Source: Candidatus Hydrogenedentota bacterium (GTDB lineage Bacteria; Hydrogenedentota; Hydrogenedentia; Hydrogenedentales; JAEUWI01). From it: 64,000 nucleotides of DNA. Location: NCBI GenBank assembly GCA_034669905.1, contig JAXMOL010000028.1, forward strand, positions 1 to 64,000, in the 5' to 3' direction. Both the position numbers and the translations under genes were made by a program. Below the pieces are notes generated by a model. It worked only from the letters and a program-made list of their open reading frames with translations. It had not been told where the DNA came from and ran no database searches. How positions within the stretch are numbered: the stretch's first letter is position 1; every line of letters begins with the position of its first letter. Below are positions 38,104 to 50,833 of this stretch, one piece after another.

Positions 38104-39429
38104 CTACAGTACCAGCTTACCCACGGATACCGGCTCAGGCGATGTACCCCCACGGAAACACCAGGCCTCGCCCGTACCGCCCACGACAAATTCGCCGTCG
38201 ACCACCGAGACATACATGCCCTCTGGCAAGGCCAGGACCACCGCGTCAGGGTTTCGAAGGCCAAACTCCTTCAGTCGCTGATCGCGGCTTTCACCCCCAT
38301 GACCTGCCACCCGCCGTGCGGTGTAGTGGGGGTTAATCTGGAAGGGCACGAGCCCCAATCCATCGAAATTTTCCGGACACTCGATGGGCATATCGTTGGT
38401 GGTCTTGATGGTGGGGCCCGCAAGATTCGCCCCGGCGCTCCAGCCCACGTAGATGGCCCCATGCTTCACCGCCCGCCGCAGGGGCGACAGGAGGCCCTCT
38501 CGCTGACAGGCGCTCAACAGGGAGAAGGTGTTGCCGCCGCCCACGATGACACATTGGGCCGAGGCCAGGGCCCCTTCCGTGTCCGCCAGCGTATGAATCC
38601 CCACCACACGGGTTTCGCTCTCGGCAAGGGCTTCGGCCACCATGGCGGTATAGGTTTCATAGCCCATATCCACCGCCGCATAGGGCACAAACAGCGCCTC
38701 GTCCACCTCTTCCAGAACCGTTGCGATGTGGGGCCGGGCCCAACCGAGATAGGGCTCATCGGCCATGGTGGAATTACTCAGCAGTAACAAACGGGGAAAC
38801 ACCGGCGCCCGATTCAGCAGCGCCTGAATACACGTAAGGGCCTTGGAAACGGATGTGGCCACATCGTCCTCGCCAGGCAACACCAGGTCAGCCCGCCCCT
38901 TGCAGGGTTCCACATAGCGATCGTGCATGGGCAGAACCTGCTGCATGAACTGGATCACCACGCTTTCCACCGTCCGTCCACGCTCCGCCACATCCCGCCG
39001 TAGACGGCGCGCAAATCGGACATCGGCGGGCGTATCCACAAAAATGGTCAGCTCACAACAGGCGGCCAGTTCATCGTTGGCCAGGGTATTAATACCCTCG
39101 ACAATAATTACCGGTCGGGGCGCAATGGTCCGCGTTTCCGAAGCGCGGGTGTGCTGGGTAAAATCGTACTGGGGTGCCACGATGGTCTCACCGGCGCGCA
39201 GGGCCTTCACGTGGGCAACAAGCAATTCGCTTTCCTGCGCATCGGGGTGGTCGTAGTTGACCTTCGCCCGCTCTGCCAGGGGCACATCCCGCTGGTCGCG
39301 GTAGTACCAATCGTGTTGGAGGACTACGGCGCGATCGCCCAGGCAGGCCAGCAGGGCTTCCGTGACCGTGGTCTTTCCCGAGCCGGTGCCGCCGGCCAGC
39401 CCCACAATCAGGGGTTGGCGCTCAGGCAT
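38104..39429 (-). CDS. udk/pepE: Uridine kinase - dipeptidase E fusion
   Basis: N-half has GGTGSGKTT, DWYYRD, NYDHPDA, RRLRRDVAERGR; C-half has LLLLSNS, VGGGNTF.LL, GWSAGAN, INPHY, LPEG; one continuous frame. Confidence 0.9.
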   Translation of the reverse strand: MPERQPLIVGLAGGTGSGKTTVTEALLACLGDRAVVLQHDWYYRDQRDVPLAERAKVNYDHPDAQESELLVAHVKALRAGETIVAPQYDFTQHTRASETRTIAPRPVIIVEGINTLANDELAACCELTIFVDTPADVRFARRLRRDVAERGRTVESVVIQFMQQVLPMHDRYVEPCKGRADLVLPGEDDVATSVSKALTCIQALLNRAPVFPRLLLLSNSTMADEPYLGWARPHIATVLEEVDEALFVPYAAVDMGYETYTAMVAEALAESETRVVGIHTLADTEGALASAQCVIVGGGNTFSLLSACQREGLLSPLRRAVKHGAIYVGWSAGANLAGPTIKTTNDMPIECPENFDGLGLVPFQINPHYTARRVAGHGGESRDQRLKEFGLRNPDAVVLALPEGMYVSVVDGEFVVGGTGEAWCFRGGTSPEPVSVGKLVL

Positions 39430-40012
39430 CGCCCAGGGCCTCCGACAACAGCGCCTGAACCGGTTCCGAAAGTGTCAATTTCATCGCGTGTCGCTTCCCC
39501 TGCTCGGACATCTTACTCCAGGTTTTCCGGATAATACCGATCATTTTTTCATGTTCCGTTTTCGCCGCAAAGTCGGCAATATGAAACTCGAGGAACACCA
39601 GGCACGCCGCATCTTCCAAGGCCCGCGTATCCGGGTCGTTGTGGAGATTCTTCTTGTGCAACAGGAAAGACACCCGCTCGATCTCGGCTTCATCGGCCCC
39701 GTGAGCACGCATGATTTCCGCCACCTTCTCGGCATGGAAGTCATACAACCCACGACGCCATGTCAGGTAACCCTTACGATCCATGGGGTAGTCGCTGCGG
39801 GGATGCTCCCAACGGCAAATGTGTTGCCCCCGGGCGGCGATGCGCAGCGCGTCGTCGGCTTCAGGACACAACTCCATCAGCCACGTACTCATCCGCAGGC
39901 CATAGAGCAACTCCTTCGGATGGGCCACCCCGTTCCATTCTTCCTTGTTCGGGTCTGCGCTGTTGGCCGTGTCGATATCGGCCAGAATCGATATGCGTGT
40001 AACCTCGTCCAT
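39422..40012 (-). CDS. DUF4202 domain protein
   Basis: ID.ANS.DPN, ELLYG.RM, AARGQHI.RW..PR..YPM.R.GYL.WR, LEDAACLVFL, KTW.KMS; start 40012 with AAGGAG RBS; 8-nt overlap with udk-pepE. Confidence 0.88.
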   Translation of the reverse strand: MDEVTRISILADIDTANSADPNKEEWNGVAHPKELLYGLRMSTWLMELCPEADDALRIAARGQHICRWEHPRSDYPMDRKGYLTWRRGLYDFHAEKVAEIMRAHGADEAEIERVSFLLHKKNLHNDPDTRALEDAACLVFLEFHIADFAAKTEHEKMIGIIRKTWSKMSEQGKRHAMKLTLSEPVQALLSEALGDA

Positions 40013-40174
40013 GCTGCTCCTTCCTTCAAGTTGGTGTGCCCATTGTACCCCGTATGAGAGCCACAGGGAAACGAAGACGAAGCGCTTCCCGCTCCATTGA
40101 TAACATGCGTCGCCCTCGCCTACCATGGCGGGGTATACCGCGTGAATAACACCCCCTAAGAATGGAGACGTTTC

Positions 40175-41524
40175 ATGACATCCAACCCGTCCTTCTCCCT
40201 CAATCGTCGCCAGCTCCTGATGGCTGCCGGTGGCGCGACGGCCGCCCTCCTCACCGGCATCCCCACCAACGCCGCGCCCATGCCCGACGTCCGGGCGCCA
40301 CGGGCCACGTCGGGCGACACGCGTCATGAGCCCAATTGGGAAGAACGCCTCACCCTTACGGTGGGACCGGATAAGGCCGATATCGTGGGCACCAATGACA
40401 AGGCCATCCAGGCCGCCGTCGATTATATCGCCCGCCTCGGTGGGGGTACGGTGCAGGTTATGCCCGGCACCTACCGCCTGCGCAATTCCATCTTTCTCCG
40501 CAAAGGCGTCCGCCTCCGGGGCAGTGGCACCGACTCCATGCTCTTCAAGGAAGCTTCCCACGAAACGGTATTGGCCGCCGATTCGGATTGGTTCGACCAG
40601 GAAGTGACGCTGGAAAATGCCGACGGCTTCCAGGTGGGCGATGGCGTTATCCTGGAATCAAAGAACCCCCACACCGATGGCGTAGATATCTTATGCCGCA
40701 CCCTCGTGGCCCGCAGTGGCAACCGCTTCAAACTGGACCGGGCGCTGCGGAAAAACTTCTGGACCATGATGACCCCCACGGTCTCGTCCCGCTTCGCCAT
40801 GATTACCGCCGAAGAAACCTCGGGCTTTGCCGTCGAAAATATCGCCCTGGATGGCAACCGGGACAACAACACCAACATCAACGGCAACTATGCCGGTGCA
40901 CTGTGGTTTCAGGATTGCACGGACATCGACCTCAAGGGACTGGATGTGCGCAACTACAACGGCGACGCCATCAGTTTTCAGATTTGCCACGATGTGTCCG
41001 TCGAAGGCTGCGAGATTCATAACAACGCCGACCTGGGCCTCCACCCGGGCTCCGGCTCCCAACGGCCCCGCATGGTGAACAACCGGGTGTCGGGCTCCAA
41101 TATCGGCATCTTCTTCTGCTGGGGCGTCAAATATGGCCTGGCGGAAAACAACCACCTCTCCGAAAACAATTATGGCGTCTCCATCGGACACCACGACGAC
41201 GAGAACCTGGTCATCGACAACGACATCCAACGCAGCCACATCAATGGCCTGGTCTTCCGTCCCGAACGGGGTGAAGGCTTCACGGCCAAGGGCAACCGCA
41301 TCGAAAACAACCGCATCGTGGACACCGGTGGCGATGCGGGCATCGCGGTGGACGTGCAGGGCGTTACCGCCAACAACAGCCTCATACGGAATACGATTAA
41401 GGAGACCCGTGGCCCTGCCCAGCGCACGGGTATCAAGCTGGGTGAAGAGGTGGGCGCCATGGAGCTGGTGGAGAATGCGATAGAAGGTTTTGCCACGGAC
41501 ATCCGTGATCTGCGCAAGGCGTGA
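40175..41524 (+). CDS. Tat-exported right-handed beta-helix (pectin-lyase fold) protein
   Basis: NRRQLL signal; AIQAAVD....GGGTV...PGTY; Asn-rich PbH1-like repeats; GGAG RBS. Confidence 0.85.
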   Translation: MTSNPSFSLNRRQLLMAAGGATAALLTGIPTNAAPMPDVRAPRATSGDTRHEPNWEERLTLTVGPDKADIVGTNDKAIQAAVDYIARLGGGTVQVMPGTYRLRNSIFLRKGVRLRGSGTDSMLFKEASHETVLAADSDWFDQEVTLENADGFQVGDGVILESKNPHTDGVDILCRTLVARSGNRFKLDRALRKNFWTMMTPTVSSRFAMITAEETSGFAVENIALDGNRDNNTNINGNYAGALWFQDCTDIDLKGLDVRNYNGDAISFQICHDVSVEGCEIHNNADLGLHPGSGSQRPRMVNNRVSGSNIGIFFCWGVKYGLAENNHLSENNYGVSIGHHDDENLVIDNDIQRSHINGLVFRPERGEGFTAKGNRIENNRIVDTGGDAGIAVDVQGVTANNSLIRNTIKETRGPAQRTGIKLGEEVGAMELVENAIEGFATDIRDLRKA

Positions 41525-41548
41525 AGGGGGTTGTCAACCTCAAAGAAA

Positions 41549-41896
41549 TTAGCGCAGCCGTTGGCCGCAACCCCAAAAAGCTGAACCACGAATAAACACG
41601 AATTCACACAAATTTTATTGGCCGCAGAAGAACGTAAGGAACGCAGAGACGAAGTATTCTCTACGGTTCGCTATGTCTTTGTGGTGAGAAAGCACTGGAG
41701 GGCAATCAACATGATTGACCACGGATAAAACGGATAGGACGGATGTGTTGAAATGAATACCTACCGCTACTCGGCTTCGCACAATTCATACTCACGATGG
41801 ATTCGTTGAGCCAACGTGCTTTGAGTCTCTGTTCCTCTATCCGTACTATCCGATTAATCCGTGGTCAAAATTCGGAATTTTTCCCGCCCTGATTTA
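41549..41896 (-). repeat. Composite ~350-bp palindromic element, inverted homolog of 20572-20901
   Basis: Contains AACCACGAATAAACACGAAT, GCCGCAGAAGAACGTAAGGAACGCAGAG and GACCACGGATAAAACGGATAGGACGGAT arms, with partner arms for the last two. Confidence 0.88.
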
Positions 41897-42022
41897 AGCT
41901 TCTAACCCTAGAAAAAGGTGATACGAACTCTCGTACTCTATTCTCTCGTCGAATGGATAAGATAACGCGGGAAAGTAGTGCAAAGAGCACAGAAACACGA
42001 AAAGCCCGTCAACTACGTGTGG

Positions 42023-42070
42023 AGGGTGTCCCCTTACGCGGAGGAGCGAAGCGGGGGAGCTTATGGGTGT
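42023..42070 (+). repeat. REP-like element, GGGTGCCACCC family
   Basis: AGGGTGTCCCCTTACGCGGAGGAGCGAAGCGGGGGAGCTTATGGGTGT matches the reverse complement of 436-485. Confidence 0.75.
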
Positions 42071-42129
42071 TCCTATCTCTGCATAGATACAGGGTGCGGC
42101 TGGACAAACAAGAGAACGCAATATTGCGA

Positions 42130-42217
42130 CCGTCATCCCCGCGAAGGCGGGGATCCAGTAGCGCAAACATAGGAAACGATGATACTCCCTGGATTCCCGC
42201 CTTTGCGGGAATGACGG
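42130..42217. repeat. GTCAT(T/C)CCCGC...GCGGG(A/G)ATC-type REP doublet
   Basis: CCGTCATCCCCGCGAAGGCGGGGATCCAG ... CTGGATTCCCGCCTTTGCGGGAATGACGG inverted pair, each arm itself palindromic. Confidence 0.85.
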
Positions 42218-42293
42218 CTTCCGCCCCTCTGAAGAACACCATGAACACACGCTACGTGACCTCGAAAACCAACGACCCGTGGATAGGATTCCC

Positions 42294-43562
42294 ATGAACA
42301 AGCTACATCCCCCATTCCTTCTTGCTGTCCTCCTGCTATCGTTCCCCTTCACCGTGCACGCCGACTCCGCGGCCGCCCGGGCGGAACTCCTCGGACAATT
42401 TGGCGACACGGTCTACCAGGCCCCATCCGTCCACCGCGTGCCCGAAATGGACCAAGGGCCCATCCAGGCCATCTATTATGACGGACTCGATTACGAGGGC
42501 AAGCCCACCCGCGTCTTCGCCTATATCGGCATTCCCGAAGCCCCGGAAGGCAAGCAACTCCCGGGCATGGTGCTGGCCCACGGCGGCGGCGGCACGGCCT
42601 TTCCCCAGTGGGTCCAGGTCTGGTACGACCAGGGCTACGCCAGCATTTCCATGGACCTCACGGGACATCTCCCCTCGGAGGACGGCTGGAAACGGGGCAA
42701 ACCCCACGAGCACGGCGGCCCCCACCACACCGGTATGTTTGACGACGTGGACAAGCCGCGCGATGCACAATGGATGTACCACGCCGTGGCCGACATCATG
42801 CTCGCCAACTCCCTCCTCCGCGCCAACGACACGGTCGACGCGGAACGCATTGGCCTCACGGGTATCAGTTGGGGCGGCGTGCTCAGCAGCCTGACCGCCG
42901 GGGTGGATGACCGCTTCGTATTCGCCGCGCCGGTCTATGGCTGTGGCTACCTTTACGATTCGAAAGGTCACTTTAACCGCATGGGCGCGACGGATGACAC
43001 CGAATTGGAGAAGAAAAAGTACTGGGACCCGGCACGTTTCTTTACCGGTGCCCCAATGCCCATGGTCTGGGTGAATGGCGACAACGACCCCCACTTTTCC
43101 GCGGACGTGTTGACCCGCTCCCATATCAGCGCGGGCCCCGGGTCCACCCTCTCCATCCACCCCCGCATGCCCCACGGCCACGGCCCCGGCTGGGAGATAA
43201 AGTACGTCCCCGAAATCTATGCCACGGCCGACCACCTGCTGAAGGGCGAGGGTACGCCGCTGGCCCGCATTACGGAACAACCAGAAGTCGGCGACGCGGG
43301 CTCCGTCCGTCTCCGCTACGAAAGCGAACAGCCCATCACCGCCGCCACGCTTTACGCCATGGTTGGCCCCTACGAATATGCGACGCCCGAAGGCAAGCGT
43401 CACCTCGATCTCGTGAACCCCTTCGAGGCCCATGACGCAGCCCTCGACGCCGAAAACAAGACCGTCACCGCCACCCTGCCCGAAGGATGCACCTACTTCT
43501 ACCTCAACCTCACAGATGACCGGGGCTGCATCGTGTCGTCCAACGTGATAAACGCCGAATAA
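42294..43562 (+). CDS. Secreted alpha/beta-hydrolase (acetylxylan-esterase-like)
   Basis: Signal peptide; TRVFAY.G.P, HGGGGTAF, GISWGG nucleophile elbow, NGDND.HF, HGH. Confidence 0.85.
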   Translation: MNKLHPPFLLAVLLLSFPFTVHADSAAARAELLGQFGDTVYQAPSVHRVPEMDQGPIQAIYYDGLDYEGKPTRVFAYIGIPEAPEGKQLPGMVLAHGGGGTAFPQWVQVWYDQGYASISMDLTGHLPSEDGWKRGKPHEHGGPHHTGMFDDVDKPRDAQWMYHAVADIMLANSLLRANDTVDAERIGLTGISWGGVLSSLTAGVDDRFVFAAPVYGCGYLYDSKGHFNRMGATDDTELEKKKYWDPARFFTGAPMPMVWVNGDNDPHFSADVLTRSHISAGPGSTLSIHPRMPHGHGPGWEIKYVPEIYATADHLLKGEGTPLARITEQPEVGDAGSVRLRYESEQPITAATLYAMVGPYEYATPEGKRHLDLVNPFEAHDAALDAENKTVTATLPEGCTYFYLNLTDDRGCIVSSNVINAE

Positions 43563-43569
43563 ATAGGAT

Positions 43570-43597
43570 GGGGACCCGGCCAATTGACCGGGTCCCC
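43570..43597. terminator. Terminator-like hairpin between convergent genes
   Basis: GGGGACCCGGCCAATTGACCGGGTCCCC. Confidence 0.7.
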
Positions 43598-43649
43598 GAG
43601 AATCTATCTTGAACGCCATCAGGGCTATGCCCAGGCGGAATACCTGTCC

Positions 43650-43847
43650 CTACTCCAGACCGGTGTACGTAATGGTGCTCGTCTCCAAAGACATTTTCTT
43701 TTCGGTTCGGGCCGCCTCGCGCACCTTCTGCACCGCAGGAAGCAAAAGGCCAATGCCTCCCTTTACCTGCTCCATCTCCTCGTCGGTCATTTCGATTTCA
43801 TCGGACTTCGTGGCTTCGTTCAATTCGTTTACCTTGATGTCTTTCAT
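43650..43847 (-). CDS. 65-aa peptide: double-glycine leader plus a core starting with the DUF1559 pilin-like motif IGLLLPAVQKVREAAR
   Basis: GGAGG RBS 8 nt before ATG; EMTDEEMEQVKGG leader; own promoter-like motif upstream and hairpin downstream. Confidence 0.85.
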   Translation of the reverse strand: MKDIKVNELNEATKSDEIEMTDEEMEQVKGGIGLLLPAVQKVREAARTEKKMSLETSTITYTGLE

Positions 43848-43950
43848 CGCTCATTCCTCCAGTTTCTGATGCGAAACTTGTTCTATTTTCCCTGCAACCC
43901 TGGGCCGAGTCGCTGTCGTGCCCTGCGCACCGTGACGCATGGGAAGTTAG

Positions 43951-43967
43951 AGCGACTATCATGCCAA
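43951..43967 (-). promoter_or_regulatory. Sigma54 (-24/-12) promoter of the 65-aa peptide gene
   Basis: Minus strand TTGGCATGATAGTCGCT has exact GG-N10-GC spacing, about 100 nt upstream of the ATG. Confidence 0.65.
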
Positions 43968-44313
43968 AACTGGATTAGTCTGTAATTCATTGCTATATAC
44001 GCCCTTATCCACATACGCCACATTTCTGACAGCCCGGCATGGCTCTACAAAACGATACCCGATGGTTGCGAACCGATACCCCAACGGATCGAACAACGCA
44101 GGGTCACAACAAAATAGACGTATCCAGGCGCCTACCATTGAATTACTGATTCAAAGGGGTGTCTCCATCCAAGGAATGGTTGTCTATGGAGGGAGCTTTA
44201 CTTGCGGCCAATTGCCACCCACCGCAAGGCACCCGCGATGCGTGAAAAAGAGCAGGTGGAACGGCGTGTCATCCGTCGCGAAATGACCGCCACGGCGGCT
44301 ATCCCACAATCGT

Positions 44314-45183
44314 TCACCCGCCCGTGATGAATTCTACGGCGGTGCGGACCACCGCAGGATCTTTCAGTATCCGTCGATGACCAAGGCCTTCGGTGGCCAT
44401 GTGCTCCCCACGGCGCAAACTCTCGTAGAGGGCATACCCTTCGCTATAGGGCACTTCCCGATCCCCCGTGTCGTGAATCACCAGCGTCGGGGGGTGGTGC
44501 TCCTTGTCATCTCCCAGAAAGGACACCGTCGTGGGGTCGCCGTCAAAGCGTCGGCCCAGATGTTTCAACGCACCGTTATAGATGCTCTCAGGCAACTGAA
44601 GGATCGACCGGAACCGGTGGAGCACGCTGGCCAGGCGGTCGGGCACACCGATGAGCACCACCCGGGCAGGGCGAAATCCAAGGCCCAGGGCATGTTGCGT
44701 TGCTGCCCCACCAAAGGAATGGGCCACCACCCCGTGGATGGGACCGTGGGCAGCCGCGATGGTCATCAACGACGTGGCGAAGTGGTGGCCATCGGTGCGC
44801 TTGCCGTCGGACTTACCATGGGCGGGCCCGTCATAGGCCACGACCGTGTAGCCTGCCGCCACAAGGGGGCGCACAAAGTGACCGAGTTGGGCACCGCGCC
44901 CTTCCCAGCCATGTATCAGCAGCACGGTCGGTCCACGACCCCAACGGTGACCATGGAGTGTCGCGCCTGCGTGGTTAAGGATAAGGGCCTCGCCTTCGGC
45001 CTTGATCTCGGCTTCGAAGCTTGGAGGGGTATAACGGCGGGGCGTGGTAAAGAGACGGCAGGCCAGGCGACCTCCCAATTCGGGGGCCACGAAGGACAAC
45101 ACACGAAATCCCGTACGAAAAACACGCAGCACGCGCCGTTCGCCGGGCCGCATGGGCAGGGCAACAGAGTGGGCATCAGACAT
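44314..45183 (-). CDS. Alpha/beta fold hydrolase
   Basis: LLIHGWEG, DGPAHG.S, AHSFGG, IHD..D.EVP, GLGHRRIL. Confidence 0.9.
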   Translation of the reverse strand: MSDAHSVALPMRPGERRVLRVFRTGFRVLSFVAPELGGRLACRLFTTPRRYTPPSFEAEIKAEGEALILNHAGATLHGHRWGRGPTVLLIHGWEGRGAQLGHFVRPLVAAGYTVVAYDGPAHGKSDGKRTDGHHFATSLMTIAAAHGPIHGVVAHSFGGAATQHALGLGFRPARVVLIGVPDRLASVLHRFRSILQLPESIYNGALKHLGRRFDGDPTTVSFLGDDKEHHPPTLVIHDTGDREVPYSEGYALYESLRRGEHMATEGLGHRRILKDPAVVRTAVEFITGG

Positions 45184-45266
45184 AGCGCATTCACCTCGCC
45201 GTCAATTATACCTACCGTACGGTAGATCGTCAAGTAACCCCAAGTCCCGCCCCGATGAAGAGCAGG

Positions 45267-46490
45267 TCAGTCACTACGGGCGCCATACACGAGTACCCCG
45301 TCGCGCCCCGATTCCGCCAGGTAACCCCGTGCGGCAAAAACATAGCTTTCAGGACCCCTTACCGACACGACGGTATTAAACATGTACAAGGAGGTGGGCC
45401 CCCGTCGTTTCCATTCCCGGGCACCTGCGTCGTCGAGTTTTATCGCCACGGCCCGACTGCGCCCATAGCCCGCCCCTTCCGACCCGGAAAGGAGGTATCC
45501 CCCATCGGCCGTCGGCACCATGCGGTCATAGGAGGCCGTAAGGGTGTCGCCATCAACCGGCACCCGCGCCCGCTCGACTCCCTGCTGGTCGACGGTAATA
45601 AGGATGGACTCCTCAAACACGTCGCCTTCTTTTCCCAGCACGAAGAACTGACCATCCTCCCGCTCCCGAAAATCAGAGGCGGAAATACGGGCCGTGTTTT
45701 CAACAAATCGGGTGGGCCGGGCGAGGATGGTATGCCACCGAACCACCCCCTCGGGAGTCAATCGGGTCAGACTGGGTTCGGATTGCTGGGTGTTATAGAC
45801 GCCGGGCCCATCCACTCCAAGGACCATCAAATCACCATTACGGTATTCCCGTATCCGAATCGCATCTTCAAATTGTGCCGTGCCGTAGGTTTGCGTCCAC
45901 AGCACGTTGCCCGCACCATCCAGTTTCGCGAGGTAGCGATCGGAAACACCTTCCCCAAAGGATTCCGTGAAGCCCGCCAGCACATAGCCCCCATCCCGGG
46001 TCGCCACCACCGATCGGGCACCGTCGAAGTAGCGTCCACCAATGCGGGCGCTCCATTCCTCGGTGCCATCCGCCGCGGCCTTCATAATATACATATCGGT
46101 TCGCCCTGCGGAATCCGACCGCGATAACCCCGCAAGCACGAATCCCCCATCGCCCGACACAATCAATCCGCCCCCTTCTCCTGGCGCCGATTCGGCATAG
46201 GCCCGGGACCACCGCACCGTTCCCTGGCCATCCAGGCGATAGACGACAGGACTGGTGTTCTCCGAATTTTCGCCCACGCCCGTGCCCAACACCAGCACGT
46301 CCCCGTTGCTCCCGACGGCCATATCGGCCACGTCCATCATACCGGGACTGCTGATTCCTCCCATCCAGTCAAGGGTGAGTGAAGGGAGCAAGGCACCGGG
46401 ACAGCCCACCAACCCCATCGCAGCAAGCACCCCTATCAGGCGACGGCCGTAGCCGTGAAACAAGACCTTCTGCACACGATTAATTGCCAT
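45267..46490 (-). CDS. Putative lipoprotein with beta-propeller-like repeats
   Basis: LVGC lipobox-like motif; repeats of T.DGGY.LAG.T.S....D.Y..K.D..G...W. Confidence 0.75.
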   Translation of the reverse strand: MAINRVQKVLFHGYGRRLIGVLAAMGLVGCPGALLPSLTLDWMGGISSPGMMDVADMAVGSNGDVLVLGTGVGENSENTSPVVYRLDGQGTVRWSRAYAESAPGEGGGLIVSGDGGFVLAGLSRSDSAGRTDMYIMKAAADGTEEWSARIGGRYFDGARSVVATRDGGYVLAGFTESFGEGVSDRYLAKLDGAGNVLWTQTYGTAQFEDAIRIREYRNGDLMVLGVDGPGVYNTQQSEPSLTRLTPEGVVRWHTILARPTRFVENTARISASDFREREDGQFFVLGKEGDVFEESILITVDQQGVERARVPVDGDTLTASYDRMVPTADGGYLLSGSEGAGYGRSRAVAIKLDDAGAREWKRRGPTSLYMFNTVVSVRGPESYVFAARGYLAESGRDGVLVYGARSD

Positions 46491-47685
46491 CAGCGCTTAC
46501 CTTTACCAGCAGGGCGGCGACGCCGGCGCCCGTTGCGGTCTCCCTGCTGAAATCGACACTCCTCCCCACCACCAGACCGGTGCCATCGTCGTTGGCGATG
46601 ATTCCATAGCCGGATGCAACGGACTTGGGGGAATAAACCCGACTCCACAGCAATTCCCCGGCCCCATCCACCTTGGTTACAAACGCATAGCTACAGAAGG
46701 AATCGTAGGCCGCCCCCGTAAGCAGCACGTTTCCCTCCGGATCCATCGCGCCTCCACTCGGATAGAAATACCGATAGTACGGCTCGGGAGCAATCAATTT
46801 CTCCCACATCAGGCCACCCTGGGCATCTACCGCCACCACATAGTTCACATCCTCTGAGCTACCCGTGAGGAGATAACCGCCTGTCGGGAGGATGGAGAGG
46901 GACGCCGCAATGTTACTGCGCGAATACCCAAAGGTTTCCTCCCATTGTACGACGCCATCTTCATCCGTCTTAACGAGATAAAAATCGGTCACATTGTGGC
47001 CCATGGATTCGGAATCACCCAGCAGGATAAAGCCACCATCGTCGGTCATTGCCAAATCCGCCGCTATCTCATTGCCCGACCCGCCATAGGTCGCGGACCA
47101 CTGCACATTGCCCGCGCTATCCAATCGGTGGAGCTGCATATCCGTGCCCCCGGACCCCGTGGAATCCGTCGTACCCAACACCATATAGCCGTCCGGCAGC
47201 ACAACCATATCGGCCGCCACGTCCTTCCCCGTGCCACCAAATCGTTTTTCCCACTGCAAGGAACCCCGGGCCGATGTTGCCATGAGGAGGTAGTCCGTTT
47301 GCGCGCCATCGCGTGTGGCACCCACGTTGCCCAGTATCAGAAAGTTCTCCCCCACCTCCGCCACACGATGGCCCCGGGAAAGACCGGAAGCGGATTCAAT
47401 GGAAGCCGTCCAGCGTTGGTTTCCCTGGTCATCGGTGCGCACAAGCAGAACATCGCCCAAGAAATTATAGCCGTCCGAAACGATGCCAACCAGCAACAGA
47501 TCGTCATTGCGGAGCCTTGTAATGGAGAAGGCCTCGCTCGCCCGTTCCTGATGGGTATATTCGTGCTGAGAGACCGGCGTGTCGGGATTGGGATCGCAGC
47601 CATCGCGAATAATACATCCCGAGAGTGCACCGAACCCCGTGAGCACAGCCGCCAATCCAAGAAGTGTGCGCCCTGCGATGCCCAT
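46480..47685 (-). CDS. Putative lipoprotein with beta-propeller-like repeats (paralog of 45267-46490)
   Basis: LSGC lipobox; same repeat type; GGAGG RBS; overlaps the downstream gene. Confidence 0.78.
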   Translation of the reverse strand: MGIAGRTLLGLAAVLTGFGALSGCIIRDGCDPNPDTPVSQHEYTHQERASEAFSITRLRNDDLLLVGIVSDGYNFLGDVLLVRTDDQGNQRWTASIESASGLSRGHRVAEVGENFLILGNVGATRDGAQTDYLLMATSARGSLQWEKRFGGTGKDVAADMVVLPDGYMVLGTTDSTGSGGTDMQLHRLDSAGNVQWSATYGGSGNEIAADLAMTDDGGFILLGDSESMGHNVTDFYLVKTDEDGVVQWEETFGYSRSNIAASLSILPTGGYLLTGSSEDVNYVVAVDAQGGLMWEKLIAPEPYYRYFYPSGGAMDPEGNVLLTGAAYDSFCSYAFVTKVDGAGELLWSRVYSPKSVASGYGIIANDDGTGLVVGRSVDFSRETATGAGVAALLVKVSADGN

Positions 47686-47741
47686 TAATTACCCTCCAAT
47701 GGGCTGCCGCCCGAGTCATTGCGCTAGTACTGCGTGGCACC

Positions 47742-47771
47742 ATTATAGGCCCTTTTCCAACAGCCGTTCAA
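47742..47771 (-). promoter_or_regulatory. Possible sigma70 promoter
   Basis: TTGAAC-N18-TATAAT on the minus strand upstream of 47685. Confidence 0.4.
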
Positions 47772-48128
47772 TCAGCGGCGAGGCACTTCGAGACACCCCA
47801 CTATTGTGCGAGAGTCGGGAGGAAAGCCCCCAGGGTTCACCTACCGAAAAGACGTACGTCGGGTGCCACGGACACGGGGCGAAAGCCCTCGCCCGTGCGC
47901 AACATGCGACCTGCAACGCAGAACAAGGCCGGGACACTATCCCCGCCCGCCAGGGGAAAGCCCACCGGGCTTGTTCGGGACACCCAGACATCGTTCTTCG
48001 TTTCGCAGCGATAACTGCCACACCCGCCCTTCCGCCGCTCCCCGTCCGCCCGGGGATTGGCCCAACGTGGGCAGAATACGCTACACTGACCGGGAGGCAC
48101 GTGGAATACATGAGGTAGAAACAAAACG

Positions 48129-48476
48129 ATGCAGATTGACCAGGAGCACGCAGACGGCGTGAGCATACTTGCCCTGAAGGGGCGACTGGATGAATTGGCC
48201 ACCACCGAGGTCGAGGCCGTTTTTACACGGACGCTTCATGACGAGGCGGGGGGCCTGATTCTGGACCTTTCCGGTGTCGAGTATGTGAGCAGCAGCGGCT
48301 TGCGCATTCTCCTCATGCTTTCCAAGGCCATGAAAAAACAACAACGGACCCTGAAACTATGTCATCTCAGCCCCTTTGTGGCCGAAGTCTTTGAGATAAG
48401 CAACTTTTCCGCTATGTTTGAAATCTACGACGACATAGCCATTGCGCGCCAGGAATTTGGCAGCGGCACGGCCTAG
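48129..48476 (+). CDS. STAS-domain anti-sigma-factor antagonist
   Basis: LKGRLD; ILDLSGVEYVSSSGLR with the phospho-Ser motif; V.EVFEIS.F. Confidence 0.92.
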   Translation: MQIDQEHADGVSILALKGRLDELATTEVEAVFTRTLHDEAGGLILDLSGVEYVSSSGLRILLMLSKAMKKQQRTLKLCHLSPFVAEVFEISNFSAMFEIYDDIAIARQEFGSGTA

Positions 48477-48485
48477 TCACCGCCT

Positions 48486-50489
48486 ATGGAACCCCGTGAC
48501 CCGGCAGTGAAACGCCCCTTGCTCCATTCCCGGCCCGAACTGTGGGATACGGTGATGGCTGACGAGGAAGAATCCGGCGATGACCGCCCAATCGCCCAGT
48601 CCACCTATCTGATCGAAAACGACGTGGTGGACATGGAAGAGCCCTGGCACGTGGGGTACCGCCTGGATGACCGCTACGAAATCACCGAAATCCGAGGGGG
48701 CAAAGGTGCCAGCGGCATGGGCATCGTCTATATCGTGGAGGACAACCACGGCCGCAAGAGCGCGGTCAAAACCCTCCAGCGCCGCTTCCGACAGGAACTC
48801 CAACTCCTCCAACGATTCGTCCGCGAAGCACGCACCTGGATGCTCATCGGCGCCCACCCCAACATCGTGTGTGCCCGTCGGCTCGACATCATTGAAGCCG
48901 TCCCCTGTCTCTTCATGGAATACGTGCCCTCCGACGAACAAGGCACCCATGCCCTGTCCCAACGGCTCAACCAGAGCCCCCTCTCCATCGAGGACACCCT
49001 CCAGCTGGCCCACCAGTTTTGCACGGGCATGATGCACGCCACCCAGGCAGTCCCGGGCCTGGTCCACCGCGACATTAAACCGGAGAACCTCCTGCTCAAT
49101 AGCGAGGGCATCCTGAAAATTACCGACTTCGGGCTGGTGCGCACCAAGGCCATGTCCGACGACACCCTGGAAAAGCTCTCCCAGTCCGACCTCTTCGAAG
49201 ATCTTCCGACCGATATCACCCGTATCGGCTCCATCTTCGGGACCCCGGCCTACATGGCCCCCGAGCAGTTCATGCGGGCCAGTGAAGTAACCTTCAGTGC
49301 CGACATCTACAGTCTCGGCTGCTGCCTCTTCGAGGCCTTGACCGGCATGCCGCCCTTTCTCATCCGGGGCGACAGCACGGTAGAGCGTCTGGTCAAGATA
49401 AAGCAGCAACACCTCACGGCACCGCCCCCATCCATTCGAGAAGCGATAGGCGACACCTGCCCCCTCGCCCTGGAAAAAATTGTGCGGCGCTGCCTGGCGA
49501 AACGCGCGCAGGAGCGGTGGGAAAGTTACGAAGACCTCGATATCGCCCTGCTGAGCGTTATGGATACCCTGAACATCACGCCCCGCGAATTGCCCTGCCC
49601 CAGTCCCACCCCACTGGAAGTCGTGGAGCAAATGCATTCCATCACGCTACTCGAGGGCTATGACCAGGCCATCCACATGCGCAAGCTCCGGGAAGGGCAG
49701 GAAGAAAGCCCCTATGCCTTCCACCTCGCCCTCGCTTCCTACTTCCATTGTGTCGACGACGACACGGAAGAAGAACGCCAGTTATCAAAGGCCCTGGCGC
49801 TCAAGGCCGATCAGGTGGGCTATGAGGCCGTGCGCCGTCTCTGCGACCTGTGGGTAAAGCAGGGCCACTACAGCCGGGCCGACGTGGTGCTCCGCGCCTA
49901 TCTGGAGAAAACGCCCGATGCCTGGGAACAAATGCTGGAACCCCTCGTGCGGGTGTCCTGTGGCCTGGGCGATTTCGACCGGGCCCGGGAAGCCCTGGCC
50001 CTCTTCGGAGACACCCAACGCATCCGTCTCCTCCGGGCGGAAATTTATCGTGCGGAGGGCGACACCTGCGCCCTCGCCAACTTGCTGAAAAAAATGCATT
50101 CGTCCGTCCTCGAACGCCTCTCCGCGAAAGTGGCCGGACTTGATGCAAGCGACACGGTGGGATGGGCCCGTTCCGATGACCCCGTGTTACTGGAGACCGT
50201 GCTGGGCTCCCTCCTGCCCGACCTCGACCTCCAGCCCCTGAAAAAAGTATCCCACGCCATCTGGCCCAGTATCAGCGGCTACCCCGATTTCGCCCCCGAT
50301 ATGGCGTGGCTCTCCTACACGCTGGGGGAACTCGCCGCCATCGGCGCGGCCGCCACCCCCGAAGCCTCCAAAACCTTTGCCCAATTTGCCGAATTCCTGG
50401 GCTATCCCAGCCGCCTCGAAAAACACCTCGAGCGGGATGAATACTGGTTCTGGATGGCCGAAACCCAATCGGGAAAAAAGACCGACTGA
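48486..50489 (+). CDS. Cytoplasmic Ser/Thr protein kinase with TPR-like helical C-terminus
   Basis: GMGIVY, AVK, HRDIKPEN, TDFGL, GTPAYMAPEQ; no TM helix seen; start may be 48555. Confidence 0.9.
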   Translation: MEPRDPAVKRPLLHSRPELWDTVMADEEESGDDRPIAQSTYLIENDVVDMEEPWHVGYRLDDRYEITEIRGGKGASGMGIVYIVEDNHGRKSAVKTLQRRFRQELQLLQRFVREARTWMLIGAHPNIVCARRLDIIEAVPCLFMEYVPSDEQGTHALSQRLNQSPLSIEDTLQLAHQFCTGMMHATQAVPGLVHRDIKPENLLLNSEGILKITDFGLVRTKAMSDDTLEKLSQSDLFEDLPTDITRIGSIFGTPAYMAPEQFMRASEVTFSADIYSLGCCLFEALTGMPPFLIRGDSTVERLVKIKQQHLTAPPPSIREAIGDTCPLALEKIVRRCLAKRAQERWESYEDLDIALLSVMDTLNITPRELPCPSPTPLEVVEQMHSITLLEGYDQAIHMRKLREGQEESPYAFHLALASYFHCVDDDTEEERQLSKALALKADQVGYEAVRRLCDLWVKQGHYSRADVVLRAYLEKTPDAWEQMLEPLVRVSCGLGDFDRAREALALFGDTQRIRLLRAEIYRAEGDTCALANLLKKMHSSVLERLSAKVAGLDASDTVGWARSDDPVLLETVLGSLLPDLDLQPLKKVSHAIWPSISGYPDFAPDMAWLSYTLGELAAIGAAATPEASKTFAQFAEFLGYPSRLEKHLERDEYWFWMAETQSGKKTD

Positions 50490-50491
50490 GC

Positions 50492-50833
50492 ATGAACAAG
50501 AATCTTCTGCAGGCCACCGAACAAGTCCTGATTGACCAATGGCAGGTCGCGCCGCTGGGCCTGTCGCCCTACGATCTCAACCGACAGTTGCTCCTCGAAG
50601 CCCTGTCGGAGCGCATCCTCTACCTGCTCCAATACCGCCCCCAGAAACTCCTGTCGGCCCTCTATATCCTCGACATCGGTGAGGATGCCTACGACCGCGC
50701 CATGGAGCAGGACACCATGCAGGACCGCGCCTGGGCCCTCGCCGAGGCCATCTACGATCGGGAAACCGAGAAGATTGAGCTCCGGCGCAAATACAGCGCA
50801 GACAGCGGGGAGAACCCCCGGTTGGAAGGGTGA
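50492..50833 (+). CDS. Small helical hypothetical protein
   Basis: Starts 2 nt after the kinase stop; LSERILYLL......LL..LY.LDI.E...A..I..RE..K...R.KY pattern. Confidence 0.75.
   Translation: MNKNLLQATEQVLIDQWQVAPLGLSPYDLNRQLLLEALSERILYLLQYRPQKLLSALYILDIGEDAYDRAMEQDTMQDRAWALAEAIYDRETEKIELRRKYSADSGENPRLEG

Follow-up and report, generated by a model that had tools for sequence, protein, structure and literature searches.

The locus and its precursor gene

This analysis concerns a small gene on contig JAXMOL010000028.1 of a Candidatus Hydrogenedentota genome (assembly GCA_034669905.1), whose positions 1 to 64,000 are referred to here as the window. On the minus strand at 43650-43847 lies an open reading frame (ORF) of 65 amino acids with the build of a double-glycine (GG) precursor gene: a short, acidic leader ending in L-x-x-V-x-G-G is followed directly by a core that opens with a segment of a pilin-like protein, and cleavage after Gly31 would give a predicted mature peptide of 34 residues. 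An initial annotation, drawn up from the letters alone, had put forward the ORF (without its strand), a GGAGG ribosome-binding site, a GG leader over residues 1-31 and a DUF1559-derived motif starting at the predicted cleavage point, and each of these has stood up. The gene and its flanks are arranged as follows.

43755..43847, minus: acidic leader, residues 1-31, ending in Gly-Gly at the predicted C39 cleavage site (GG-leader models below cut-off)
43710..43754, minus: core residues 1-15, a copy of DUF1559 prepilin residues 17-31, the Pro22 region (15/15 identity)
43677..43709, minus: variable linker, core residues 16-26 (three of the four changes relative to orthologs L013 and L039)
43653..43676, minus: conserved C-terminal word TITYTGLE, which terminates 12 homologs
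43856..43860, minus: ribosome-binding site GGAGG, 8 nt before the ATG (from the sequence)
43951..43967, minus: sigma-54-type -24/-12 promoter box, with an inferred transcription start near 43940
44048..44080, minus: two GGTATCG-type boxes, at 44048-44059 and 44069-44080
43570..43597, minus: GC-rich terminator-like hairpin of 12 pairs, between the gene and a convergent esterase gene (region at -28.7 kcal/mol)

Searching leader and core against family models gave a divided result. The best NCBIfam matches of the ORF are GG-leader models only, all below cut-off (TIGR03949, E 0.0012; TIGR03798, E 0.023, with 14.9 bits on the leader against a cut-off of 32.3), neither TIGR03793 nor TIGR03798 rising above its threshold, while the core matches no Pfam or NCBIfam model. 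A leader profile does recover the paralogs in the host genome. The ORF carries neither the PF07963 prepilin cleavage and methylation motif with its membrane helix nor a PF07596 domain; a search of the ESM Atlas with the peptide returned a single nameless lead at 0.76, and a sequence search of the PDB had as its best and only lead a Nif11 leader at E 0.45.

Syntenic orthologs in L013 and L039 share 97.5% DNA identity over the ORF; the four codon changes are all non-synonymous and three fall in the linker, although two such close orthologs are too few for a test of selection. The gene stands between the convergent esterase-like gene (42279-43562) and an alpha/beta hydrolase gene (44314-45183). 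As the annotation had also said, no exporter or modifying enzyme is adjacent, and no immunity-like gene was seen adjoining the precursor in the window.

Borrowed motifs behind GG leaders

The precursor belongs to a large and apparently undescribed family. A sequence search found 57 homologs of 46-103 amino acids. When 1.84 billion representatives were searched with a profile, 8474 proteins reached E <= 0.001, and the best 150 of them include about 70 further proteins joining a GG leader to the motif; those below the best 150 are probably ordinary prepilins for the most part. Because these 57 and roughly 70 homologs share it, the joining of leader and motif is not a chance event. A GG leader is found in 122 of 130 short motif-bearing proteins, as judged with a leader profile derived from the same protein set, and the motif starts at or beside the cleavage site; its Pro is core residue 6 in 90 and lies at residues 4-8 in all. 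Cys occurs in only three of 120 distinct cores, and the same core stands behind three leader styles (acidic, basic and Nif11-type). With an exact DNA pattern, 17 loci were located among GTDB genomes and a further 25 among metagenomes. Fifteen of the 17 GTDB loci encode GG peptides, in Hydrogenedentota, Sphingopyxis, Polymorphobacter, Rhodospirillales, Pyrinomonadaceae, Vicinamibacteria, Opitutus/Verrucomicrobiae and Polyangiaceae, so that carriers span Hydrogenedentota, Alphaproteobacteria, Acidobacteriota, Verrucomicrobiota and Myxococcota; a cultured carrier is Sphingopyxis jiangsuensis XHP0097, with P0059. L005 and L008, with the motif inside proteins of 194 and 1400 amino acids, were excluded from the carrier count, and the rows L027 (a membrane protein), L026 and L043 were dropped. 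The GG-plus-motif DNA pattern has no locus in viral contigs, and tblastn of phages and plasmids found nothing. Neither the motif strings nor the leader-core architecture was found in any paper within a literature coverage that left out supplements and most subscription journals, and the main text of PMC12219008, its supplements aside, mentions neither Hcp nor pilin.

Core residues 1-15 are identical, 15 of 15, to mature residues 17-31 of the N_methyl and PF07596 (DUF1559) prepilins P0222, P0084 and P0110, and core Pro6 therefore corresponds to pilin Pro22. Such prepilin-like proteins (PF07963 plus PF07596, H-X9-DG model TIGR04294) are highly multi-copy, with at least 41 genes per Planctomycetales genome (PMC8567305), and some homologs of the window peptide add the start and end of the PF07596 model as well. 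Unlike them, the window peptide has no prepilin cleavage site, membrane helix or globular head, and predicted GG export takes the place of prepilin processing. The motif is also foreign to its host: about 46 of the 59 host prepilin-like proteins share one variant, which matches the window core at 9 of 16 positions, and none of the 59 has the window's variant. A paralog on host contig C6 holds a second variant, which Planctomyces sp. SH-PL62 also has in a protein annotated as DUF1559; the host thus encodes two non-self versions of the segment. Nine of 16 carriers, two complete chromosomes among them, have no PF07596 match at all, and ten of 16 have no Hcp match. One 13-residue motif word is written in 21 DNA spellings with 46% third-position identity, and is therefore not a pasted DNA element.

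That the core might be a mosaic of borrowed epitopes was the weakest claim of the initial annotation and has become the best-supported new point. When 103 leaderless cores were scanned, 20 matched PF07596, Hcp, FG-GAP, gp19 or vWA in Pfam (10 of them at E <= 0.001) and 15 matched TIGR04294 in NCBIfam, 30 of the 103 matching such models in the two scans combined; best matches to unrelated models numbered one in Pfam and three in NCBIfam. Two single peptides join the pilin motif to other sources, to an Hcp segment in P0040 and to an autotransporter segment in P0058. What the Hcp-like cores copy is the beginning and the end of the Hcp model, and among the homolog tails there are matches to models of Hcp, DUF1559, FG-GAP, autotransporters and tail tubes. 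Recurring words, by patterns picked after inspection of the data, are present in 68 of 121 tails against a shuffled mean of 0.5. The tail of the window peptide is one such case: TITYTGLE ends 12 homologs, one of them from Sandarakinorhabdus. Its proposed derivation from surface-protein repeats or tail-tube C-termini found no confirmation, searches for a source family outside Planctomycetota being negative. In 401 genomes of the phylum of G004 the TITYTGLE pattern occurs in nine, against four for a reversed control, with most matches in other frames. Two viral-contig matches were rejected as a source, having no credible coding frame.

The same words recur in large secreted proteins. The pilin motif appears two to nine times in proteins of 140-5300 amino acids with signal-peptide-like, planctomycete-extracellular or PEP-CTERM features, and these long carriers show short matches, many below cut-off, to Hcp, gp19, phage-baseplate OB, extracellular contractile injection system (eCIS), FG-GAP, astacin and EF-Tu models. 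P0071 was modelled as a beta-solenoid resembling a region of an RTX adhesin (pLDDT 81; Foldseek E 3e-5), in which each of the five motif copies forms a strand and a loop of 10-12 residues and not a helix. As the word is kept and the pilin helix is not, the long carriers, if the model holds, favour recognition of a linear epitope. Giants of 3453-5355 amino acids (P0065, P0069 and P0078) show scattered short Hcp, gp19, baseplate, eCIS and EF-Tu matches, and an annotation as Hcp or DUF1559 can hide a mosaic that bears such motifs, as in P0069 (5053 amino acids), named 'type VI secretion system tube protein Hcp'. A signal-peptide family of about 180 amino acids (P0213, P0215-P0221, P0224 and P0225, alignment A4; probably also L005:5479-6063) bears the pilin motif at its end, and equivalent positions match the recurrent words in some members only, as if converging through point mutation.

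Export machinery, partner proteins and regulation

Paralogs with other cores, and an exporter elsewhere in the genome, were things for which the annotation had proposed to look, and both exist. The host has at least eight paralogs of the precursor, on contigs C6, C3, C47 and C38, most with Hcp-like cores. A cassette on C6 comprises the gene of a Cys-cluster protein, a sigma-54 activator in which no N-terminal sensory domain was detected, and two precursors; convergent with these lie a TIGR04500-like gene (match below cut-off), a transporter and HlyD. The transporter, of 1039 amino acids in the order cNMP-cNMP-C39-ABC, retains its catalytic residues and is the only C39-ABC transporter of its type found in the host genome, which supports the annotation's suggestion of export in trans. 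A C39 match at E <= 4e-27 is present in 15 of 16 carrier genomes and some C39 match in 7 of 14 control genomes; in the two genomes with the motif in long proteins it is absent or marginal.

Candidate modifiers accompany the precursors. The Cys-cluster protein, which has a predicted leader-binding RRE domain, co-occurs with them in the same 10 of 135 genomes of the phylum, making modification in trans plausible; its C-terminal domain (residues 276-360) matches solved RREs, and its Cys-cluster half matches no known enzyme model for peptides that are made on the ribosome and modified after translation (RiPPs). In three alphaproteobacterial cassettes its place is occupied by a protein-lysine-methyltransferase homolog, and four of 16 carriers have neither. 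At L035:2739-4304 a radical SAM/SPASM gene, a third candidate modifier, lies between pilin-motif precursors and the exporter.

Several other precursors deserve mention in their own right. Divergent from the Cys-cluster gene on C6, L001:6522-6760 (minus) encodes an Arg/Ile-rich GG-leader peptide with repeated RIGIR-like units, which is conserved in L094 and falls outside all borrowed-motif classes. The ends of C47 and C38 (L045:8322-8751 and L046:7856-8258 in G000) hold in tandem at least four near-identical precursors with the Hcp motif, an array split across the contig ends and closing with a copy whose tail is aberrant, and L077 (G013 C155) holds eight arrayed GG precursors that share a conserved NSPPALRKQ...GxDW core, which matches no model. 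A type VI secretion cluster at L047 (G000 C9, about 39400-50000) contains the host's single full Hcp; the host is thus predicted to export Hcp-like fragments while owning a type VI system.

The annotation foresaw neither control by sigma-54 nor the RRE-bearing partner, whose presence suggests possible modification of the core. At 119 nt upstream of the ORF stands the -24/-12 box; no sigma-70 site was found upstream. Such a box, of which 0.024 would be expected per 400 bases, precedes 13 of the 16 precursor loci in Hydrogenedentota, these loci being kin and not independent, and only one of 11 loci outside the phylum, with start positions approximate at several loci other than that of the window. 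In L013 and L039 the box and both GGTATCG-type boxes are unchanged. The 12-mer GGTATCGTTTTG has three occurrences in the genome: one precedes the window gene, one the C6 precursors, and the third is on C26. The sigma-54 activator whose gene is beside the C6 exporter likely binds at the GGTATCG-type boxes, and from the shared boxes and the C6 exporter we infer co-regulation and export in trans. RNA contigs of relatives, from four runs of two studies, cover the ORF, two short ones being restricted to it and its upstream leader (43614-43877 and 43704-43933, the latter ending 7 nt from the inferred transcription start); as word shares are all small (0.09-0.17) and the contigs show neither strand, start nor level, they are a weak hint only that the ORF is expressed.

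GG export cassettes of both layouts seen among carriers have already been described (PMC3140520, PMC2887384). A GG leader is common to the present peptides and those exported by C39-ABC transporters, such as class II bacteriocins, microcins and the products of cyanobacterial group I and II clusters (PMC3140520), as are orphan precursors served in trans. The cyanobacterial clusters pair a long-type C39 transporter with HlyD and SurA/rotamase (PMC3140520), and C6 likewise pairs a long-type C39-ABC transporter, with N-terminal cNMP domains, with HlyD and a neighbour related to peptidyl-prolyl isomerases. Unlike bacteriocins and microcins, the cores here copy conserved pilin, Hcp, tail-tube and adhesin-repeat motifs and not arbitrary hypervariable sequence, and the genes are under apparent sigma-54 control. 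Alphaproteobacterial and myxobacterial carriers have HlyD with a two-ABC cassette similar, by size and layout, to the TIGR03794/03796/03797 exporter of NHLP/Nif11 (N11P) precursors, which are an earlier example of a precursor taking one of its parts from an unrelated protein (PMC2887384); homolog L014 itself has a Nif11 leader. There, however, the leader is borrowed and the core is hypervariable and rich in Cys, Ser and Thr, whereas here the core is borrowed, Cys is nearly absent and one core follows three leader types. The EbfG1-4/PteB system of Synechococcus elongatus, with several GG peptides, one C39 transporter and a non-antibiotic role (PMC4997328), is alike in organisation, and its cores are described there as having no homology to known domains. 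RRE-dependent RiPPs have a PqqD-like leader-binding domain comparable to that of the partner protein, but its Cys-cluster half resembles none of their known enzymes and modification here is putative.

Possible roles and their rivals

The window gene would, on this evidence, be a stand-alone precursor of a peptide-export system that is likely sigma-54-controlled. The C6 activator would switch on scattered precursor genes together; the Cys-cluster protein would bind the leader through its RRE-like domain and might modify the core; and the C39 transporter would cut after Gly31 and secrete the 34-residue peptide. Taken jointly, co-induction, optional modification, cleavage and export are very probable. 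That the modification is lysine methylation is a guess, made because the alphaproteobacterial cassettes carry the methyltransferase homolog in the Cys-cluster protein's place.

What the peptide does is a matter for more cautious wording. The initial annotation saw in it a possible soluble mimic of a pilin assembly epitope (decoy, inhibitor or signal). The pilin origin of its motif stands. Three findings weaken the assembly reading: the motif is joined to words that do not come from pilins, some genomes that have it lack any DUF1559 match, and in long carriers it is modelled as a strand and loop. The window product, with sister peptides that copy Hcp and tail-tube strands, could instead form a cocktail of conserved 'foreign appendage' epitopes that occupies or falsely triggers the sensors or binding proteins by which neighbouring cells or predators recognise such epitopes. 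We consider it an even call that the window peptide is a regulated, exported mimic, decoy or false signal for receptors that read appendage epitopes. Plant receptors that sense epitopes derived from flagellin or EF-Tu may offer a parallel.

The motif's position in the pilin invites a different reading, in which a microcin-like peptide enters competitors and jams pilus assembly as a dominant-negative fragment while its sisters jam injection-system tubes. In type IV pili segment 15-23 unwinds upon assembly (PMC5059446), and the copied segment spans Pro22 and the end of that region; the Hcp-like cores keep the first and last parts of their model, and a foreign variant would spare the host. Such jamming is nevertheless rather unlikely: words from unrelated machines are mixed in single cores, the motif is a strand plus loop in large secreted scaffolds, the peptide lacks the hydrophobic residues 1-16 that membrane insertion requires, the host owns an Hcp in its type VI cluster, and no immunity-like gene was noticed beside precursors, though no dedicated search was made. 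An unlikely, if very slightly more probable, proposal is a new RiPP class whose active product is chemically modified and whose borrowed motifs are mere substrates or recognition sequences. It can draw on the RRE-like domain of the co-occurring protein, the three methyltransferase homologs, the sub-cut-off TIGR04500-like protein on C6 and the radical SAM/SPASM gene of L035; it does not account for the convergence of cores on motifs from several unrelated families, for the presence of these words in long proteins of Sec or PEP-CTERM type that have no GG leader, or for the four of 16 carriers with neither modifier. Modification of this type would be compatible with mimicry as an extra step.

High dosage is suggested by the near-identical precursors arrayed in tandem (C47/C38, L077), and the long carriers resemble adhesins, as might be expected of matrix or adhesion peptides that build biofilms, with segments chosen for self-association or appendage binding; EbfG1-4 are C39-exported GG peptides needed for biofilm (PMC4997328). 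Yet a foreign variant exactly conserved across five phyla, with a second natural variant tracked as well, goes beyond the needs of self-assembly, and the EbfG cores are reported without homology to other proteins (PMC4997328), leaving a matrix role quite unlikely. Least credible, and largely refuted, is a neutral by-product, whether multi-copy fragments recombined behind a GG leader or a decayed DUF1559 gene. The high copy number of DUF1559 genes (PMC8567305) would supply the material, but all 122 homologs have the motif in frame and at or beside the cleavage site, the DNA has diverged while the protein word stayed fixed, promoter, ribosome-binding site and terminator are conserved, host prepilins are of a different variant and carriers without DUF1559 exist. 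A decayed DUF1559 gene, in particular, is rejected.

Beyond this peptide a wider pattern may exist, which we advance tentatively and, its three parts taken together, at somewhat less than even confidence: environmental bacteria of many phyla might share a dictionary of epitopes of about 10-15 residues copied from the best-conserved parts of other microbes' proteins; its sources might be pili, the tubes and spikes of type VI and other contractile-injection systems, adhesin repeats and abundant proteins; and its words might be released as regulated, possibly lysine-methylated peptides and displayed in loops of large surface proteins. Were this so, widespread receptors would read such epitopes, as a microbial pattern-recognition system, and mimicry would be engaged in an arms race against them. 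The export machinery is familiar; what is new is the cargo, exact pieces of other organisms' surface machines in variants that the host does not use. Unrelated secreted proteins share the words, and the agent that selects for all this must read short linear epitopes outside the cell; the family therefore supplies synthetic probes for the receptors. It likewise offers a way into the function of the DUF1559 pilin-like proteins, whose numbers are much expanded, and the Cys-cluster/RRE protein is a candidate new peptide-modifying enzyme.

Elsewhere in the window, 38104-39429 (minus) encodes a fusion of a uridine kinase (PRK family) with a peptidase S51 (dipeptidase E), conserved in L013. The intergenic region 41860-42280 holds repeated palindromic elements that recur in many RNA contigs and are likely a REP-like repeat, and 45267-47685 (minus) holds two lipoprotein-like beta-propeller genes in tandem (weak PQQ_2 matches). 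At 48129-50833 a short gene, STAS-like by eye, is accompanied by a gene for a Ser/Thr kinase that bears TPR-like repeats and by a small gene downstream; in L018 a kinase likewise adjoins the precursors.
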